Shown here: in pieces, positions 8,926 through 64,000 of the stretch
Position numbering within the stretch: position 1 is the stretch's first letter
Layout: every line of letters begins with the position of its first letter
Assembly: GCA_963662275.1 (NCBI GenBank)
Contig: OY759316.1
Location: 2,688,001-2,752,000 of the forward strand
Origin: Candidatus Cloacimonadales bacterium
GTDB lineage: Bacteria > Cloacimonadota > Cloacimonadia > Cloacimonadales > DAONDQ01
Length of the DNA stretch: 64,000 nt
Reading direction: 5' to 3'
Notes under the pieces: model-generated
What the model saw: the letters and a program-made list of their open reading frames with translations, nothing else
Database searches by the model: none
What the model was told of the DNA's origin: nothing
Position numbers and translations under genes: made by a program

Positions 8926-9618
8926 ATGGCTATCAGAGAAATCGAGATCAAGAGAAATGTGCTTAAATATCCGGCTGGATCAGTTCTAATTTGCATGGGA
9001 AATACAAAAGTATTATGCACGGCATCTATTGAATTAGGGACTCCCATTCATTGTAAAGATAAGAATATTGGTTGGCTGACTGCTGAATATTCCATGCTTC
9101 CCGGGAGTACTCATACTCGCAATCGTAGAGAAGTAAGCGTTGGAAAAGTATCTGGTCGAACGGCAGAAATCCAGCGTCTTATCGGACGTTCCCTGCGGGC
9201 AGTAACAGATCTTTCTCTTTTTCCTGGTTACTCAGTTTTAATTGATTGCGATGTTTTACAAGCTGACGGCGGTACCAGGACTGCTTCTATTACAGGTGCT
9301 GCCGTAGCCCTATATGATGCTTTCCAATTGATGATTTCTCAGAATATTGTAAATCAAAATCCCATGAAAGAATGGTTAGCAGCCATCAGTGTTGGTATTG
9401 TTTACGGTGAATATGCCCTTGATCTTTCCTTTGAGTTGGATTGTATTGCAGAAGTGGATTTCAACGTTGTTATGACGGAAAGCGGTAAATTCATTGAAGT
9501 ACAGGGAACAGCCGAACATAATCCATTCTCTCGTGAGCAATTGGATCAAATGCTCCTGCTAGCTGATTCAGGGATTCGTGAACTAATCAGTATGCAGAAG
9601 GTAGCTTGTAGCTTGTAG
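8926..9618 (+). CDS. rph: Ribonuclease PH
   Basis: GWLTAEYSMLP, SGRTAEIQRLIGRSLR, QADGGTRTASITG. Confidence 0.96.
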   Translation: MAIREIEIKRNVLKYPAGSVLICMGNTKVLCTASIELGTPIHCKDKNIGWLTAEYSMLPGSTHTRNRREVSVGKVSGRTAEIQRLIGRSLRAVTDLSLFPGYSVLIDCDVLQADGGTRTASITGAAVALYDAFQLMISQNIVNQNPMKEWLAAISVGIVYGEYALDLSFELDCIAEVDFNVVMTESGKFIEVQGTAEHNPFSREQLDQMLLLADSGIRELISMQKVACSL

Positions 9619-9630
9619 CTTGTAGCTTGT
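9601..9630 (+). repeat. Heptamer tandem repeat (GTAGCTT)x4 overlapping the rph stop
   Basis: gtagcttgtagcttgtagcttgtagcttgt. Confidence 0.9.
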
Positions 9631-9693
9631 ATGGAATTGTGACAGTAATTCCGCTTTTTACCTGCTTCGGACTTTACATGAAAGAAAAGAGTA

Positions 9694-9757: not shown

Positions 9758-9768
9758 CATGAAAGCTA

Positions 9769-9892
9769 AGAGCCGGTTCATTGAGTGATTTCGACGAAGG
9801 AGAAATTGTATCGAAATGACCCAATGTGACCCTATAACGTTGTGTAATGTCGTCTCCTCGATACAAATAGATAAATCTGTTCACTCGGAGAA
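9769..9892 (+). repeat. 124-bp dispersed MITE/REPIN-like module, copy 1
   Basis: Near-identical to 38572-38695 (inverted) and 48625-48748. Confidence 0.9.
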
Positions 9893-10033
9893 TTCAGTTT
9901 TCATCATCTGTAGCGAAAACCTGTTTCCAGGGAAGTTAAAATCGACCTTTTCATCTTCGGTAACAAATTAGATTTTCAGTGAAGTTCGGAGATGCCAATT
10001 CGCACTCGATATCATTTAGTTCTTTCCTCTTCC

Positions 10034-10068
10034 CTGTACGCTGTACGCTGTACGCTGTACGCTGTAAA
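10034..10068 (+). repeat. Heptamer tandem repeat (CTGTACG)x4-5
   Basis: Same unit as the reverse complement of the 60599-60870 array. Confidence 0.9.
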
Positions 10069-10195
10069 CTGTCATCTTATCCCCATATCCTGCTCCCCTT
10101 CAGTTTCTGTAATGTTATGCTTGACAAAAGGAATTCCTTAGGAGACCTATCTTTTATTAAAAAATCAGCTTGTTGCTATTGTAAGGAGAGAACTA

Positions 10196-15838: not shown

Positions 15839-15901
15839 GGAAGTCCATTTTCCCTTTTAGTTAGTGGTCATTGATTTTTTTACTTGGGAAATTGAACACC
15901 A
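15839..15901 (-). repeat. ~63-nt hairpin element
   Basis: Minus strand TGGTGTTCAATTTCCC-N31-GGGAAAATGGACTTCC. Confidence 0.8.
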
Positions 15902-38425: not shown

Positions 38426-38571
38426 GCATCCGGGAGTCTAAAATTCCCACAACAATCCTTTGGTTATTTGTTAACTGAAAGTTAATTTCGGACTCATGGA
38501 TCGTTTTTAAATTGTATTCGATTCTGAACTTTCCTGAAAACAGGTTTTCGCTACCGAGGATGAAAGCTGAG

Positions 38572-38695
38572 TTCTCCGAGTGAACAGATTTATCTATTTG
38601 TATCGAGGAGACGACATTGCACAACCTTATAGGGACACATTGGGTCATTTCGATACAATTTCTCCTTCGTCGAAATCACTCAATGAACCGGCTCT
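38572..38695 (-). repeat. 124-bp dispersed module, copy 2, bounded by a perfect 13-bp inverted repeat (38559-38571/38694-38706)
   Basis: GATGAAAGCTGAG ... CTCAGCTTTCATC. Confidence 0.9.
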
Positions 38696-40141: not shown

Positions 40142-40202
40142 TGGATTTCAAATCTCTAATGCCTTTTTTACTAACTCAAAGATGAAGGAGATTTGGAATT
40201 CA
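40142..40202 (+). repeat. ~63-nt hairpin element (diverged, fully paired stem)
   Basis: TGGATTTCAAATCTCT-N29-GGAGATTTGGAATTCA. Confidence 0.7.
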
Positions 40203-40287
40203 ACCACATATTTAGCAGCGTATTCATAATACGGTTTTGAACTTCCCTCAAAACAGGTTTTCGCTACCGATGATGAAAATGTCGGTT

Positions 40288-40351
40288 TGAAGTCCATTTT
40301 CCCTTTTAGCCAGTTGGTAATTGATAGTTTTGCTTGGGAAATTGAACTCCA
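40288..40351 (-). repeat. ~63-nt hairpin element
   Basis: Minus strand TGGAGTTCAATTTCCC-N32-GGGAAAATGGACTTCA. Confidence 0.85.
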
Positions 40352-40489
40352 AACTTTAACTTTCATATAAACATCAAACTCTTGGCTTTCATATAAAGCC
40401 CACATATAGCATCAGATTTGAATAAACTCGAATTTCCTTGACAGGATAAAAAAGACAGTTTCTTTCAACCAAAGCATAAGGAGGAACTA

Positions 40490-48624: not shown

Positions 48625-48748
48625 AGAACCGGTTCATTGAGTGATTTCGACGAAGGAGAAATTGTATCGAAATGACCTAATGTGACCCTATAAGGTTGTG
48701 CAATGTCGTCTCCTCGATACAAATAGATAAATCTGTTTACTCGGAGAA
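48625..48748 (+). repeat. 124-bp dispersed module, copy 3
   Basis: Near-identical to 9769-9892. Confidence 0.9.
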
Positions 48749-48758
48749 CTCGAGGTTT

Positions 48759-48966
48759 TGGAGTTCAAATTTCCATTGAATCTACTAGGACTTCTCAAGT
48801 AATAGGAAATTCGGACTTCAAAATCGACATTTTCATCCCCGGCAGAAAAAACCAGTTTTCAGGGAAGTTCAAAACCGATTTGGACACACAGCTAACATTG
48901 GGGTTGAAGTCTAAATCACCTTTTAATTGAGAATATGTGATAGTTGGAATGGTGATTTAAACTCCA
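48759..48966. repeat. Two ~63-nt hairpin elements (48759-48820 plus strand; 48905-48966 minus strand) with linker module
   Basis: TGGAGTTCAAATTTCC-N30-GGAAATTCGGACTTCA; minus strand TGGAGTTTAAATCACC-N30-GGTGATTTAGACTTCA. Confidence 0.85.
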
Positions 48967-56147: not shown

Positions 56148-56223
56148 TTCAAATAGCAAGAACGGCGTCTTGCTTTACTTACCAGAAGGTCTTTCAAATA
56201 GCAAGAACGGCGTCTTGCTTTAC
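56148..56223. repeat. Tandem pair of 31-bp palindromic repeats
   Basis: TTCAAATAGCAAGAACGGCGTCTTGCTTTAC at 56148 and 56193; the second overlaps the mtaB stop. Confidence 0.85.
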
Positions 56224-58520
56224 AAATATTCATCATATAAGGTTACCTCTATTCCATCTCTAAAAGGTTGTTTGGGAGTAAACTTCAACAACTCTCCCTT
56301 GAGTTGGGTTGCTGAACTCCGATTCGGCAAATATATCCTCACAAAATGGTCTGACAAAGCAGTCCAATATCCGTCTTCCTGCGTCTCAATTACACCGGAT
56401 AATGGAATTTTATGCAAGATTAAATACTGAAGATATTCCTTAAGCTTTGTTTCCGATAACTTGTGAAGTACCTTATTCCTCTCTGTCGAAACGGTTCCAT
56501 GCACTTTATCCTTCATGGCAGCAGCTTCCGTACCGGGTCTTGAGGAATAGGAAAACACATGCAGATAAGTGAAAGGCAGAGCTTCCAGGAAATGCAGGGT
56601 TTCGTTGAACAACTCATCAGTTTCTCCAGGAAAGCCAGTGATCACATCTAAGCCAATCGCCATATCAGGATGGATTGACTTCATTTTGAGAATGATGTCC
56701 CTGAATTCTTTCGCATCATAGTGTCGTTTCATTCTACTTAAGATCGTATCAGAGCCTGACTGCATGGAAATATGGAAATGATGGCAGAGCTTTTTACTTG
56801 TTTTGATGAAATCCCACATCCTATCTGTCAGCAATTGTGGTTCAATAGATGAAATGCGGATATGCTCTACCCCTTCCATTCCTTCAATCATTTCGAGCAA
56901 GGCAGCCAAATCAGTCTTTTGTTCCAAGTCTCTACCATACAAGCCTAGATTGATGCCTCCAAGCACGAATTCCTGGTAGCCATTGGATACAAGCAAGGAG
57001 ATTTGTTCTTTAATTTTATCCATTTCACGGCTTCTGGAATGCCCACGTGCAAAGGGAACAGCACAGTAGGCACAATAGAAATCACAGCCATCCTGGACTT
57101 TAATGAAAGCACGTGAACGCTCCGGCATCTGGGTAGCACTCAGTTCCTGGAACTTGCTGTAACCGAGTATATCAGAGAAACAGTCTCTATTTGATTCAAG
57201 GAGTTCAGGAATCATATCCTTATGCTGGTTATCAACCACAAGGTCAATATTCCCAAGCTCTTTCACCTGTTTGTATTGTCTCTGTGAGAAACAGCCTGTG
57301 ACCACAATCTTTGCCTGCGGATTCAGTTCCTTCTGCTCTAATGCCTTACGAATGGCATTACGGCTTTTATAATCGGTACGATTCGTAACTGTACAAGTAT
57401 TAATGATATACACATCCGCGGGTTCATTGAAGTCAACCGTTTCGTAGCCCACCAATTCAAAACTGCTGATGATACAGGCAGATTCATACTGGTTGACCTT
57501 GCAGCCCAATGTGAGGATAGCCACCTTCGAAGTTCGAAGTCCGAAGTCCGAAGTCCGAAGTGCAGAGTAGGGGTCCGCGTCAGCAGACCCACCATCGGAA
57601 GTGCGAAGTCCGAAGTTCGAAGTACGAAGTGCAGAGTAGGGGTTTGCGGAAGTAAACCCACCATCGGAAGTGCGAAGTCTGAAGTGCGAAGTATGAAGTG
57701 AAGAGTAGGGGTTTGCGGAAGTAAACCCACCATCAGAAGTGCGAAGTCCAAAGTTCGAAGTTCGAAGTGCAGAGTAGGGGTTTGCGGAAGTAAACCCACC
57801 ATCGGAAGTGCGAAGTCCGAAGTTCGAAGTTCGAAGTGCAGAGTAGGGGTTTGCAGAAGTAAACCCACCATCGGAAGTGCGAAGTCCGAAGTTCGAAGTT
57901 CGAAGTGCAGAGTAGGGGTTTGCGGAAGTAAACCCATTCTTCCCATCTAAAATACTTGCAATCGTCTTCCCGTAAAGCTCATGCTCCACTGCCAACACTT
58001 TGGCTGCTATTTCCTCAGGGGATTTACATCCAGTAATATCCACTTCCTGCTGGGCTATGATCTTCCCTGCATCGTAATCTTCATTCACCCAATGCACGGT
58101 TGCTCCGCTCATCTTCTCTTTGGCTGCAAACACTGCTTCATGTACAAAATGTCCGTACATCCCCTCTCCCCCATACTTAGGAAGCAGAGCCGGATGGATA
58201 TTGACGATCGGGCAGGAAACTGACTGAATAAATTCATGACTGAGCTTAAAAAGAAAACCGGATAAGACCAGCAAATCTATTTTATGCAAATGAATCAACT
58301 CTGTAAGAGTTGATTCAAATTGCTGAATGTCTGTTGCTTTTAAAAAAATTGAAGGAATCTGAAAAGCTTCGCACTTCTCTATGATAGGCGCATACTTCCT
58401 TGTAACGATGACAAATGACACTTCCACGGGTAGATTGTTCTCCCGCAGAAAGTGAACGATCGCTTCAAAGTTTGAACCACGGCTCATTCCTGAAGTGAGG
58501 AAGGCTATTTTTTTAGTCAT
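56220..58520 (-). CDS. Fusion: PurN-type formyltransferase + repeat linker + MtaB tRNA methylthiotransferase
   Basis: N-term GSNF, NIHPALLP, GATVHWV..YDAG (PurN); C-term TLGCKVNQYES, NTCTV, KVQDGCDFYCAYC, DVITGFPGE (MtaB radical SAM); single open frame. Confidence 0.85.
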   Translation of the reverse strand: MTKKIAFLTSGMSRGSNFEAIVHFLRENNLPVEVSFVIVTRKYAPIIEKCEAFQIPSIFLKATDIQQFESTLTELIHLHKIDLLVLSGFLFKLSHEFIQSVSCPIVNIHPALLPKYGGEGMYGHFVHEAVFAAKEKMSGATVHWVNEDYDAGKIIAQQEVDITGCKSPEEIAAKVLAVEHELYGKTIASILDGKNGFTSANPYSALRTSNFGLRTSDGGFTSANPYSALRTSNFGLRTSDGGFTSANPYSALRTSNFGLRTSDGGFTSANPYSSLHTSHFRLRTSDGGFTSANPYSALRTSNFGLRTSDGGSADADPYSALRTSDFGLRTSKVAILTLGCKVNQYESACIISSFELVGYETVDFNEPADVYIINTCTVTNRTDYKSRNAIRKALEQKELNPQAKIVVTGCFSQRQYKQVKELGNIDLVVDNQHKDMIPELLESNRDCFSDILGYSKFQELSATQMPERSRAFIKVQDGCDFYCAYCAVPFARGHSRSREMDKIKEQISLLVSNGYQEFVLGGINLGLYGRDLEQKTDLAALLEMIEGMEGVEHIRISSIEPQLLTDRMWDFIKTSKKLCHHFHISMQSGSDTILSRMKRHYDAKEFRDIILKMKSIHPDMAIGLDVITGFPGETDELFNETLHFLEALPFTYLHVFSYSSRPGTEAAAMKDKVHGTVSTERNKVLHKLSETKLKEYLQYLILHKIPLSGVIETQEDGYWTALSDHFVRIYLPNRSSATQLKGELLKFTPKQPFRDGIEVTLYDEYL
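57528..57935 (+). repeat. 69-bp x6 tandem array (GTAG-REP + CGAAGTN heptamers) inside the CDS
   Basis: GTAGGGGT at 57567, 57636, 57705, 57774, 57843, 57912; total 408 bp = 136 codons. Confidence 0.95.
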
Positions 58521-60598: not shown

Positions 60599-60870
60599 TG
60601 ACAGCGTACAGGGTACAGGGTACAGCGGACAGGGTACAGCGGACAGGGTACAGCGTACAGCGTACAGGGAACAGCGTACAGGGTACAGGGTACAGCGGAC
60701 AGGGTACAGCGGACAGGGTACAGCGTACAGGGAACAGCGTACAGAGTACAGGGTACAGCGTACAGGGTACAGCGTACAGGGTACAGCGTACAGGGAACAG
60801 CGTACAGCGTACAGGGTACAGCGTACAGGGAACAGCGTACAGCGTACAGGGAACAGCGTACAGCGTACAG
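60599..60870 (+). repeat. Heptamer tandem array (GTACAGS / GGACAGG / GAACAGC) ~39 units
   Basis: Continuous 7-bp periodicity upstream of aspS. Confidence 0.95.
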
Positions 60871-60965
60871 AGGTGGTGCGCTGTGTTTCCTCCCCCCTTG
60901 GGAAGGGGGGCAGGGGGGTCATATCGGTGGACTGGGCGAATTCCTTTCGCCTTCGATCTATAACT

Positions 60966-61304
60966 TGGAGTTCAACTTGCCAATATGACTATCATTTGAT
61001 TTAGATGTAAAAGGCAAGTTGGACTTCAAGCCCGAAATTCAACAACCTAATTGAGAGTATGGAGTTCATATTTCCTTCGAATCTTTTACGAACACTCAAC
61101 TAAAAGGAAATGTGGACTTCATCTCGACCTTTCATCCAGCTAAGGTTTGGAGTTCAATTTCCCAAACAAGACTGTCGATTTACAAAAGGCTTAAAGGGAA
61201 AATGGACTTTAAACCGAAATTTAACAAACCAGCTAAGTTTATGAAGTCCACATGCCCTATTAGTCAGGTATTCAATGATAGTAAGCTTGGGCAATTGGAC
61301 TCCA
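60966..61304 (+). repeat. Tandem array of four ~63-nt hairpin elements (three plus, one minus)
   Basis: Units at 60966-61028, 61060-61121, 61148-61211, 61242-61304; linkers 31, 26 and 30 nt. Confidence 0.9.
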
Positions 61305-61616
61305 GATACTTGTTCCCATTCCTCCCTTTGGATAAAGGGAGGTGACCTTCAGGTCGGAGAGTTTGAAAAGCTGAATGATAGTACCATCACTTGGTGCATA
61401 TTCCGCTCAGAAAAGCCACCTTGTCCGATTAAGTTGAGCCAGTGCTCCACTATAATTGAGCCATACTATATTGTCTTTTTGAGCCACACTACGTATCTGA
61501 TCGCCATATAACATAATATCTGCAGTGTTTGGCAAGATTCTGTTCCGGCTGCTGCGGAGAGAGGACGTAGTCCGAGCGAAGCAGCAGCCGGAACGTTGCG
61601 CCTAATGGGCAATAGG

Positions 61617-62372
61617 CTATTTTCTATTGATTTGTTTTATTCCCTTGCGTTCTCTCATTGACATCTTCCCATCGATAAATATATGGTGAGAGTTATGAAC
61701 AAGCCGGTCAAGGATGGCATCAGCGAGAGTGGGTTGTCCAATCTTCTCGTGCCATCCTCCGGTTTTGAACTGAGAGCACAAGACCGTAGATGCTTTGGAA
61801 TACCTCATCTCGACTATTTCAAAGAGATCTTTAGCTTCCTGTTCGTTTATCCTGGTTAACAGCCATTCATCAAGTATCAGCAGTTTCGCATTTACATATC
61901 TGTCTATGACTCTTTGATGCCCGCCTTCACAACGACTAACAGCGAGGTCATCCAACAGTTCAGGCAGGCGGACGTATTTTACAGTGAAGTATTTCTTGCA
62001 GGCAGCTATGCCAAATGCGCAAGCCAGCCATGTTTTACCGCTTCCCGATGCTCCGGTGATGATGATATTCTCATTCTCTCCAATAAAAGAACATGACGCC
62101 AATTCAACGATTGCACTACGATCAAGTTTCCTGTCTTCATGGTAGTCAATATCTGCTATACTCGCATTACTGAACTTGAAGCCGGCACCGTGAATCAGAC
62201 GTTTAAGCCTATTATTCTTGCGCTTATCCCATTCTATATCAACCAGCATGCCAAAGCGCTCGTCAAAGCTGTAGTTTTCCAGTGATTTATCGTTAACCTG
62301 ATTTCGGTAGGCATCTGCCATGCCATTTAACAGCATCTCTCGAAGTTTAATGATAGTAGTATTATTAGTCAT
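61617..62372 (-). CDS. istB: IS21 helper AAA+ ATPase
   Basis: GASGSGKT, LLILDEW, ADAILDRLVH, SMRE. Confidence 0.93.
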   Translation of the reverse strand: MTNNTTIIKLREMLLNGMADAYRNQVNDKSLENYSFDERFGMLVDIEWDKRKNNRLKRLIHGAGFKFSNASIADIDYHEDRKLDRSAIVELASCSFIGENENIIITGASGSGKTWLACAFGIAACKKYFTVKYVRLPELLDDLAVSRCEGGHQRVIDRYVNAKLLILDEWLLTRINEQEAKDLFEIVEMRYSKASTVLCSQFKTGGWHEKIGQPTLADAILDRLVHNSHHIFIDGKMSMRERKGIKQINRK

Positions 62373-63917
62373 TTTCGTTTCTCCCGTAGTAACCTGATTC
62401 CCGGCTGATGGCATACTCTGAGCTTTGCACCGCTTCAGCATCATTATCGGTGCTTCTCTTCTGTTCATTTGAGTTTAGAATAGTCTTGATGATTCTGTAA
62501 CTCGGATTTGGTGTGTAGCTTAATGCTCTCTGACAGGCATTTTCCAAATTTTGACAGCCGTACTTTTTTGAAGCGCTTAGCACAGCCATGCAAGTGCGAT
62601 AACCTTGCTGTTCAACCCTGCATGATCCCAGGATTGACTTGATTACCAACTCAGTGCTTGTTCCAAGAGTACAAGCCCAGTCAACAAAACTATCTGCATC
62701 CCATTTCCGGTATTCCTGATGATCCTTGGGCATATGTTCGGCATTGGTCTGATATCGCTCAGAGTTTCCCTCCAAGCCCCTGGGGGAGGCTATTCTGACT
62801 GAATTGTAAAAGACCTCCACCACCCTGGCGGTTAGGCGAATATCCACTTTGTGGTGGATATATTCATAAGGCACTGAATAATACTTCTTATCAACCATAA
62901 TGTGATAGTTGTAACCAACCGTTGCTGTAGCCCATGTAGCCAGTTCATAAGCCGCCTCCGGCAAGGGAAGCAGCTGCTCTCGTTCTTCTTGCCAAAATAC
63001 GCTTTCACGGGAGCCATCTTTGACCTGGAAAGGCTGAAAGGCTTACTGTTAAATTCAGCCAACTTTTCCCTGATTGCCTTATTGAGTTCTCTAAGCGAGA
63101 AGAAACTCCTGTTGCGAAGAGCAGCCAGAATCCAGGTCGAGATAATACCTACTGTCCCTTCAGCACTTGCCTTATCCTTGGGATGCCTGACCCTGGCAGG
63201 GATGACCACTGTATTGTAGTAATTAGCCAGTTCATTATATGTCCTGTTGATTACACTGCCTCCACTGGATACCCGCTCCACACCAGTCTTGAGGTTGTCA
63301 GGTACCAGTATTTTTGCCACTCCGCTCATATATTGAAAACAGTTTACATGAGCCTGAATCCAGTTACACAGACTCATATTGGGAAGTGCTTCAACATAAG
63401 CATAGCCACTATAGGGCAAAACAGCGACAAAGACTGGAACTTTAAGCTGTGCCCCGGTAAGATTGTTTGTCAAATACGCAGATTGACCTGCCCAATCAAC
63501 CTCAAGCTTCTCACCCGGCTTGTGATGAATGCGCATGGTTGCCTTGGTTTGATGAGCATATTCCGTGTAAAGCTCGCAGAATCGACTGTATTGATAGGGT
63601 ATCGTCTGATTCTGACGGCATAACTCCGAATATTCATGCCATAACAACGACAAGGTTACACCGCTTTTACCCAATTCCTTGTGAATATGCTCAAAATCAG
63701 GCATCCTGCGACAACCTTCGATATTTACAATGGGAAATAGCATCTTCCCCAATTCCCTGTCACTAATTGTATCAGAAATTGGACAGAAAACAGCTTGTTG
63801 GGCTGCTGCCCTCAGCACCTTGGATACGGTATTGCGGGAGCACGGCAGGCTTTGAGCAATATTCCTTTCACTAATTCCTTGCGCCTGTAAACGCAAGATT
63901 TCTCGATAATTGGTCAT
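62365..63917 (-). pseudogene. istA: IS21 transposase, frameshifted by an 8-bp duplication
   Basis: EVDWAG, PDNLKTGV, PKDKASAEG (DDE); two ORFs (63917-62832, 62964-62365) join if one GAAAGGCT copy at 63028-63043 is removed. Confidence 0.9.
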
Positions 63918-64000
63918 TTTGTGACCTCCATTGTGTTATTTGCGCTCTTCAGCGCATTGCCACATGGTTAATCACACTCTGATTTATGCAAGGTGGCTCA

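Follow-up and report, generated by a model that had tools for sequence, protein, structure and literature searches.

A probable REPIN/REP-type hairpin family of Cloacimonadota that flanks putative RAYT genes in relatives and abounds in a genome without the cognate gene

A 64,000-nt stretch of the genome of a Candidatus Cloacimonadales bacterium (hereafter the window) carries an array of ~63-nt hairpins at positions 60966-61304, with further copies of the same hairpin dispersed elsewhere in it. We consider it probable that these hairpins are non-autonomous mobile DNA of Cloacimonadota, of the type of repetitive extragenic palindromic (REP) sequences and of the REP doublets forming hairpins (REPINs). 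The decisive result is a genetic linkage. In relatives, hairpins of the same build flank one clade of genes for a putative REP-associated tyrosine transposase (RAYT), and it is this linkage that points to a single-stranded DNA (ssDNA) element of REPIN/REP type and not to an RNA gene, an attC site or a guide array. Here, we describe the anatomy of the hairpins, the covariation of their stems, their distribution, their linkage to RAYT genes in relatives and the absence of that gene from the window's own genome.

We searched the window with a covariance model, R1, built from 110 hairpins of the family. R1 found 11 places, i.e., four array units and seven dispersed copies, with best-strand E values of 1.7e-17 to 1.6e-06. 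The seven dispersed copies (9694, 15839, 38707, 40142, 40288, 48759, and 48905) are identical to those listed in a preliminary description of this DNA. In each unit, the 5' arm starts with TGGAGTTCA, the 3' arm ends with TGGACTT(C/T)A, and a 7-nt inner stem leads to a loop whose length is fixed at ~30 nt. The two feet, TGGAGTTCA and TGGACTTCA, are conserved over 8-9 bp and pair with each other; two of these pairs are G-T on the top strand. The 7-nt inner stem is unlike between array units and is paired in each of them. At no more than one mismatch, TGGAGTTCA has 40 matches in the window vs 19.4 +/- 4.5 after shuffling, and 0 of 100 shuffles reach 40. The preliminary description spoke of four tandem units; four units do exist, but the fourth is inverted, leaving three in tandem and one convergent. 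A degenerate copy that it placed at 38432 is visible by eye as a fragment with one recognisable arm, but R1 gives nothing there at E<=1. The linkers, which it took for spacers, are instead pieces of conserved head and tail modules. The array and the dispersed copies are laid out as follows.

60966-61028, plus strand: hairpin unit 1, inner stem ACTTGCC/GGCAAGT, 16/16 arm pairs, R1 55.7 bits
61029-61059, plus strand: 31-nt linker, homologous to the linker at 61212-61241 (direct repeat D2)
61060-61121, plus strand: hairpin unit 2, inner stem TATTTCC/GGAAATG, R1 52.5 bits
61122-61147, plus strand: 26-nt linker, the start of a tail module (..CGACCTTTCATCC) fused to the end of a head module (AGCTAAGGTT)
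61148-61211, plus strand: hairpin unit 3, inner stem ATTTCCC/GGGAAAA, 3' foot ending TTTA, R1 56.4 bits
61242-61304, minus strand: hairpin unit 4, inverted, convergent with unit 3 across a 30-nt gap, R1 44.7 bits
9694-9757, plus strand: dispersed copy, chimeric between two subfamilies (ATTTCCC in the left arm, GGGCATT in the right), 13/16 pairs
9758-9941, plus strand: head-tail shell holding a ~125-nt module, M2, in place of a hairpin
15839-15901, minus strand: weak dispersed copy, 13/16 pairs, 27.2 bits
38707-38770, minus strand: dispersed copy, then head, M2 and tail
40142-40202, plus strand: dispersed copy with the variant feet TGGATTTCA / TGGAATTCA
40236-40368, minus strand: full composite, with a 17-nt head (40352-40368), the hairpin (40288-40351) and a 52-nt tail (40236-40287)
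48759-48820, plus strand: dispersed copy of AATTTCC type
48905-48966, minus strand: dispersed copy, inner stem AATCACC/GGTGATT

A 188-aa open reading frame (ORF) on contig C108 of a related genome, G057, lies between two hairpins, one 9 to 12 nt past its stop and one 94 nt before its start. It is the one weak match to the Pfam Y1_Tnp profile that did track hairpins. We searched its protein against the Cloacimonadota family f3, against G001 (the only other species of the window's genus that we examined) and against the window's own genome, and inspected 23 loci sharing at least 40% identity. Hairpins of this build occur within 400 nt at 15 of the 23 loci, mostly on both sides. These 15 loci span 10 genomes and five genera; the feet are canonical at ten (L116-L120, L122, L135, L146, L152, and L154) and variant at five (L121, L124, L125, L153, and L155). 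Around distant Y1 paralogues (L136-L145), a hairpin was found within 400 nt at 0 of 10 loci. Beside more distant members of the clade, the same ~63-71-nt hairpin carries the foot variants CGGAGTCC.., GTGTGGAGTCG.., and CAGGAGTCG.., as expected if enzyme and site co-evolve. The foot is conserved across two families and varies together with the RAYT subclade.

In G001, the gene (C30:3832-4395) has three hairpins on its left and four on its right, the nearest ending 52 nt away on the left and starting 19 nt away on the right. The nearest copy on each side of a RAYT gene usually turns its 5' foot toward the gene. Genome G110 has the gene and an upstream three-hairpin array twice (L119 on C6 and L152 on C49, 96% protein identity), and the identity between the duplicates ends ~25 nt after the stop codon; hence, gene plus array can itself be copied. 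The preliminary description had raised the search for a consistently linked gene as a check, and a RAYT gene between such hairpins in relatives answers it.

The linked protein is, by its sequence, a divergent RAYT, i.e., a Y1 enzyme of the HUH type. REP_Tyr_transpos is its only NCBIfam family (E 5.9e-16 and 3.5e-17); the match spans positions 7-146 and 6-146 of the 146 profile positions but stays under the curated 80 bits. Its only match in the PDB is Escherichia coli TnpArep (4ER8, E 6.5e-06). Both HUH histidines (N-H-Y-H; H60 and H62) and the catalytic-type tyrosine Y120 of the motif Y-I-H-x-N-P are invariant in 12 sequences.

We assessed stem covariation on 110 distinct hairpins, nine from the window and 101 from other genomes, against 500 shuffles; four of 114 references (three isolated hits from other phyla and an overlap artefact) had been dropped beforehand. 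Paired cells amount to 96.5% vs 80.5 +/- 0.6% after shuffling, and cells changed on both sides from the commonest pair number 255 vs 68.3 +/- 7.5; 0 of 500 shuffles reach either value. When partners are slid, pairing falls to 57.9% or less. Both-side changes are seen at 10 of the pairs of the 16-pair helix, of which only the inner columns 10-16 are informative, since the feet were fixed by the collecting pattern. The inner stem is highly varied, with 76 distinct 7-mers in 165 arm pairs. The compensating inner stems of the preliminary description are therefore borne out and greatly extended, and its view of a structure maintained on a single-stranded molecule agrees with both the covariation and the strand asymmetry of the pairing. 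In the foot, the wobbles G3-T and T7-G are nearly fixed. At inner positions 10-16 of the 165 distinct arm pairs there are 34 G-T, 13 A-C, and 74 other non-pairs, so the further statement that mismatches are G-T wobbles on one strand only was too strong. G-T vs A-C in inner stems is 17 vs 3 in the window's genome, and position 9 has 30 A-C and no G-T. Pairing favours the top strand.

A scan of one genome per species gave at least 111 loci, and those with several or well-paired copies are Cloacimonadota metagenome-assembled genomes. Among the matches listed, 161 in number, 117 have at least 13/16 pairs and 44 have fewer. The isolated, poorly paired hits in other phyla match the chance expectation for 17 fixed bases. 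Exact feet are present in 54 of 232 Cloacimonadota genomes, namely 51 of 98 in family f3, the window's own genome (G000) and G001 in family f1, and one of 62 in family f11; the other Cloacimonadota families sampled have none, and a reversed control pattern scores 0 in every genome. The hairpin family is essentially confined to two Cloacimonadota families. Within genera, its presence is patchy (e.g., 9/21, 15/23, and 18/24 genomes). Counts of hairpins with exact feet range from 0 to 97, with the maximum in the window's own genome and 96 as the most in a relative.

The window's contig is complete (4.38 Mb, 39% G+C). A pattern search allowing one mismatch per foot gave 145 matches genome-wide, of which the 136 with at least 13/16 arm pairs are the copies counted below; R1 gives at least 150 places. 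Hairpins are 61-67 nt long, most often 64 nt (58 copies), 62 nt (36), or 63 nt (33). The hairpins comprise 124 distinct sequences with 26 different inner 7-mers; the most frequent 64-mer is found seven times, identical, in different flanks. By a gene proxy of crude ORF-based genes over 84% of the genome, 132 of 136 copies are intergenic. Of these, 96 lie between same-direction genes, 28 between convergent and eight between divergent ones, against a background of 2142, 309, and 308, respectively, although genomic copies are clustered and hence not independent. At 4.38 Mb, the genome exceeds most relatives, which are mostly 2-3 Mb. Its load of insertion sequences (ISs) is very high for the phylum, with 191 repeat regions of at least 500 bp at 88% identity or more in a self-BLAST and repeat classes that include ~37, 23, 16, and 12 regions with median lengths of 1.9-2.7 kb.

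How might such hairpins move? E. coli TnpA-REP and the TnpA of IS200/IS605 elements bind and cut folded ssDNA of one strand. By analogy, the RAYT of the linked clade would move the hairpins; it may recognise the folded top strand as ssDNA and cut next to a short motif, with the joint perhaps inside the foot after GGAsTT. One-strand action of this kind would lead to strand-asymmetric pairing and compensatory inner stems, and also to a patchy, copy-rich distribution without target duplications, whose absence is expected for Y1 enzymes. In the window's genome, the hairpins persist as a large population without a cognate RAYT, mostly in composites or arrays.

Several observations weigh against a REPIN/REP-type element. 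First, the cognate RAYT is absent from the window's genome: tblastn with the G001 and G057 proteins finds only distant paralogues, the best being 11 RAYT paralogues with 24-34% identity over a ~100-residue core, and no RAYT remnant stands above noise near any hairpin at E values up to 50. Each of the genome's 15 Y1 genes lies at least 1.9 kb from any hairpin, and no foot-like 9-mer in hairpin form was found within 400 nt of them. Even so, the largest population of all genomes sampled is that of this RAYT-less one, identical copies included, whereas REPIN populations are described, in the portion of the preprint drawn on here, as shrinking and decaying after RAYT loss (bioRxiv 10.1101/2021.07.10.451892). 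Second, linkage is incomplete in relatives. Eight of the 23 clade loci (L123, L126, L127, L129, L131, L156, L158, and L159) have no detected hairpin, and Y1 genes in general, by Pfam Y1_Tnp, do not track hairpins over the 98 f3 genomes. Three genomes at least 90% complete (G034, G102, and G107) carry 4-10 hairpins but lack any Y1 match, while seven (G047, G052, G056, G059, G060, G066, and G069) have 4-9 Y1 matches and no hairpins. The hairpin-rich genomes G090 (69), G101 (35), G068 (35), and G097 (33) show no full RAYT of the clade, an absence that is weak evidence either way because these assemblies are fragmented.

Third, the feet TGGAGTTCA / TGGACTTCA have no GTAG or CGTC tag, the tetranucleotide that marks the palindrome end in classical REP superfamilies; GTAG is confined to the tail, a separate module (GGTAGCGAAAAC). 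Fourth, the covariation set was collected with fixed feet and a filter of at least 14/16 pairs, so that its pairedness is partly selected; for a chance match, the estimated probability of passing that filter is ~7%, whereas the looser cut of 13/16 was actually passed by 117/161 scan matches. Outside the window's genome, the excess of G-T over A-C is modest (17 vs 10). Finally, the copies show no orientation bias relative to replication (59 vs 77, p = 0.14), and no insertion polymorphism appeared in four short-read contig sets, which break at every repeat. Such contigs end at 48658 and resume at 48803, for example, and the joints listed are repeat artefacts.

The genome's own Y1 genes were considered as partners of the hairpins and set aside, as they are not adjacent to them. 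The preliminary description had proposed a REP-like ssDNA substrate for an enzyme encoded elsewhere. Its REP-like part is supported by the RAYT of relatives, but "elsewhere" does not extend to a cognate gene in this genome. The 11 divergent RAYT paralogues (213-259 aa, e.g., G000:C1:2410063-2410746, 3201625-3202317, 806915-807643, and 1039409-1040092) mostly carry different tandem or inverted repeat arrays of their own within 260 nt on either side, which indicates at least eight separate REP-RAYT pairs in one genome.

In the window's genome, a hairpin usually comes with a 17-nt head (CATGAAAGCTAAGAGTT) and a 52-nt tail (AAACCGACCTTTCATC.TCGGTAGCGAAAACCTGTTTTCAGGGAAGTTCAAA), ~135 nt in all, and most hairpins sit in this composite or in arrays with 17-nt linkers. 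This raises the question of what is copied. The ~135-145-nt composite might itself be the multiplying unit here, as a transposable element of the miniature inverted-repeat type (MITE) moved in trans by a non-cognate transposase, with the hairpin as passive cargo. We regard this as the less likely account, at perhaps a third of the weight we give to a REPIN/REP-type element, and it overlaps that interpretation rather than opposing it. Among head-to-tail distances, 42 fit one hairpin, 13 fit M2, and a few fit two hairpins. M2 begins CGGTTCATTGAGTGATTTCGACGAAGG, replaces the hairpin in the same shell (window 9773-9897 and, on the minus strand, 38566-38690) and has at least 13 places in the genome. 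Exact hairpin-plus-tail matches number 33 here, one in G001 of the same genus and none in three genomes of the other family that are rich in hairpins; the composite is genus-specific. Its ends are loosely inverted (TTTGGAGTTTAC.. / ..GGGAAGTTCAAA), and a MITE would fit both the absent cognate RAYT and the richness in ISs (the 191 repeat regions above).

The expected traces of such a MITE were, however, missing. The shared flank words of 32 composites do not exceed a shuffled-partner control for target-site duplication. No IS has the composite's ends: 11 head-to-tail pairs 300-4000 nt apart resemble neighbouring small elements and yielded no candidate for an autonomous element with a head and a tail at its ends. 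Nor does any IS family consistently adjoin hairpins: at most three copies of any family lie within 300 nt, and IS families were dropped as partners on this ground; the IS21 copy next to the array is among a few chance neighbours. No empty shell occurs among the head-to-tail distances of this genome. Within subfamilies, likeness is 0.92-0.96 for the hairpin vs 0.82-0.87 for its 17-nt head, and identical hairpins are found in differing shells, so what is copied or kept seems to be the hairpin rather than the shell. Of the old MITE suggested in the preliminary description, there remains the fact that a MITE-like composite of ~135 nt carries many of the copies; neither a target-site duplication nor a parent IS was found.

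The arrangement of neighbouring copies also favours the REPIN/REP-type interpretation. In the window's genome, 18 neighbouring pairs are tandem (10 with a gap of exactly 17 nt), 15 convergent and one divergent; in other genomes, 29 are convergent, six divergent and two tandem, making the convergent pair the usual arrangement. By analogy, this convergent excess suggests a doublet order like that of REP pairs.

We noted a regularity in the spacing of the feet. Of 213 same-strand intervals of up to 130 nt between foot-like 8-mers, 27 are 26 nt and 120 are 52-55 nt, and GGAsTT is present in the same orientation in both feet. A 3' foot with TTTA is followed by a head module in 14/17 cases and one with TTCA by a tail in 90/91 (Fisher p = 7e-14, which overstates the coupling since copies are related). 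Foot spacing and the coupling of foot base to module place the apparent module boundary inside the foot, after GGAsTT. A speculative extension, to which we attach little weight, is that the foot itself is a Y1 cut-and-join site and that the 55-nt cores, the 26-nt linker and the ~50-nt tail are cassettes that can be pasted behind any foot. It would account for the same motif and orientation in both feet, the fixed 26- and 52-55-nt spacing, the coupling of the foot T/C to the next module, hairpins more uniform than their shells, and chimeric copies. Shuffling in this genome would then need another enzyme, e.g., one of the 11 other RAYT paralogues. If so, a REPIN population would have switched its host enzyme instead of decaying.

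Selection at the RNA level, on small structured RNAs or on cis-acting RNA hairpins such as 3' untranslated region stabilisers, would explain the strong covariation, the G-U-compatible pairs on one strand and the good folding (z = -3.4 for a 221-nt composite), but other evidence makes it very improbable. At gathering score, Rfam finds only a tRNA in the window and no family for the hairpins; around the copies there are only miRNA-precursor models at E >=0.5, and RF01687 is not matched. The seven identical copies, the chimeras and the patchy presence between species do not fit an RNA gene, nor do the absence of a run of T behind the hairpins and their mixed orientation (35 with vs 61 against the genes, where these run in the same direction). 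The orthologous aspS upstream region of G001 is empty of hairpins, and in relatives the hairpins flank a transposase gene. A tRNA-derived origin, suggested by a T-arm-like GGAG-TTCAAAT-CTCC in some copies, was rejected; the T-arm of the window's tRNA-Asn differs, and most subfamilies are without the motif.

Integron attC sites are bounded by R''/R' core sites of consensus RYYYAAC / GTTRRRY and delimit gene cassettes next to an integrase. The conserved stem base, variable centre, strand asymmetry and fixed loop length of our hairpins are all attC-like, but attC-like sites or a CRISPR-like guide array with acquired loops can practically be dismissed, as the gaps between units are only 15-31 nt and hold no cassettes, the feet misfit the attC core consensus, loops are common to many loci and related between subfamilies, the array matches none of 50,697 phage or 72,556 plasmid records by BLAST, and the linked gene encodes a Y1 transposase, being neither an integrase gene nor a cas gene. 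Given loops shared between loci, no match in Rfam or among phages and plasmids, and no consistent orientation relative to genes, the non-coding RNA and guide-array candidates of the preliminary description find no support.

Several other features neighbour the hairpins. An IS21-family element, which does not belong to the hairpin family, stands between the array and the next hairpin pair, itself just beyond the window end.

61386-64000 (on to ~64089), minus strand: IS21-family element, with istB and with istA in two ORFs

Its istB is a 283-aa ORF (IstB_IS21, E 1.2e-59), and istA is split into ORFs of 361 aa (rve and helix-turn-helix) and 199 aa (Mu-transpos_C_2). Its repeat class comprises 23 regions in the genome self-BLAST (median 2692 bp). 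TCACT is found at both junctions, the right one touching the 5' foot of the next hairpin. Heptamer tandem arrays also lie beside hairpin clusters, at window 60601-60870, 57521-57936, 10034-10072, and 9601-9631. They consist of ACAGCGT/ACAGGGT (~38 times), a 69-nt unit of GAAGTNC heptamers (six times), CTGTACG, and GTAGCTT. The 69-nt tandem repeat at 57521-57936 sits within a 766-aa ORF (56220-58520, minus strand) that combines a formyl-transferase N-domain with UPF0004 and radical-SAM domains, an unusual fusion. Cyanobacterial repeats (Nezha MITEs and small dispersed repeats) were considered for the heptamer arrays and dropped, the carriers being Cloacimonadota. A small repeat at window 61320-61375 and 60880-60925 consists of a CCTCCCTTTGGATAAAGGGAGG hairpin adjoining GGAGAGTTTGA, plus a G-rich GGGAAGGGGGGCAGGGGGG; it adjoins hairpin copies elsewhere in the genome as well.

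Among the papers that a literature search listed, none links Cloacimon* with RAYT or REPIN, and papers pairing Cloacimon* with "extragenic palindrom" were, by title and abstract, only unrelated ones. Almost all work on REPIN-RAYT systems concerns Proteobacteria, and the Cloacimonadota family would be a second case, in a distant uncultured phylum. Its anatomy separates the parts: the short foot changes with the RAYT clade, while the stem above it varies as long as it stays paired, which makes the recognition rule directly testable. That the largest population sampled occurs in a complete genome lacking the RAYT is also relevant to the published claim that REPINs decay after its loss.

How does the family compare with known systems? 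According to passages of two reports, REPINs consist of a pair of conserved inverted sequences separated by a less conserved spacer, of which the length and the capacity to form a hairpin matter; compensatory changes are common, and REPINs are positioned flanking RAYT genes (PMC3116915, PMC5581495). The Cloacimonadota hairpins resemble the REPIN-RAYT systems of Pseudomonas and Enterobacteria, as far as these passages describe them, in their conserved inverted feet, length-keeping hairpin spacer and compensatory changes, in their many extragenic copies, in flanking a RAYT with HUH and Tyr motifs (here in relatives), in the several distinct RAYT-REP pairs per genome and in populations gained and lost between lineages. 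They differ in phylum, in a conserved part that is only an 8-9-bp foot below a hypervariable inner stem, and in a long loop (~30 nt) without a GTAG or CGTC tag. The RAYT of Cloacimonadota scores under the NCBIfam cut-off and is duplicated in at least one genome (G110), and in the window's genome the repeats occur but the gene does not.

E. coli REPs are ~35-nt imperfect palindromes with a GTAG head. The Cloacimonadota units, in contrast, are 63 nt long with a large loop, and most of their arrays in the window's genome keep one orientation, joined by a fixed 17-nt linker. The two systems share alternating-orientation repeats joined by short conserved linkers into mosaic arrays, as in the bacterial interspersed mosaic elements (BIMEs) of E. 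coli, and TnpA-REP (4ER8) is the only solved relative of the linked protein. With pneumococcal BOX elements and bacterial MITEs such as Correia and Nezha, as covered in part of PMC3184786, the composite has in common a modular head, repeated middle and tail, a non-coding, intergenic location and stable folds. Unlike these, it has no target duplication and no matching IS, and its middle module has a cognate Y1 transposase in relatives. IS200/IS605 elements have strand-specific hairpins that are recognised as ssDNA, leave no target duplication and are cleaved next to a short fixed motif. The Cloacimonadota hairpins offer a comparable short motif, GGAsTT, in the same orientation in both feet; they are, however, not the subterminal ends of a gene-carrying IS but multiply alone, in hundreds.

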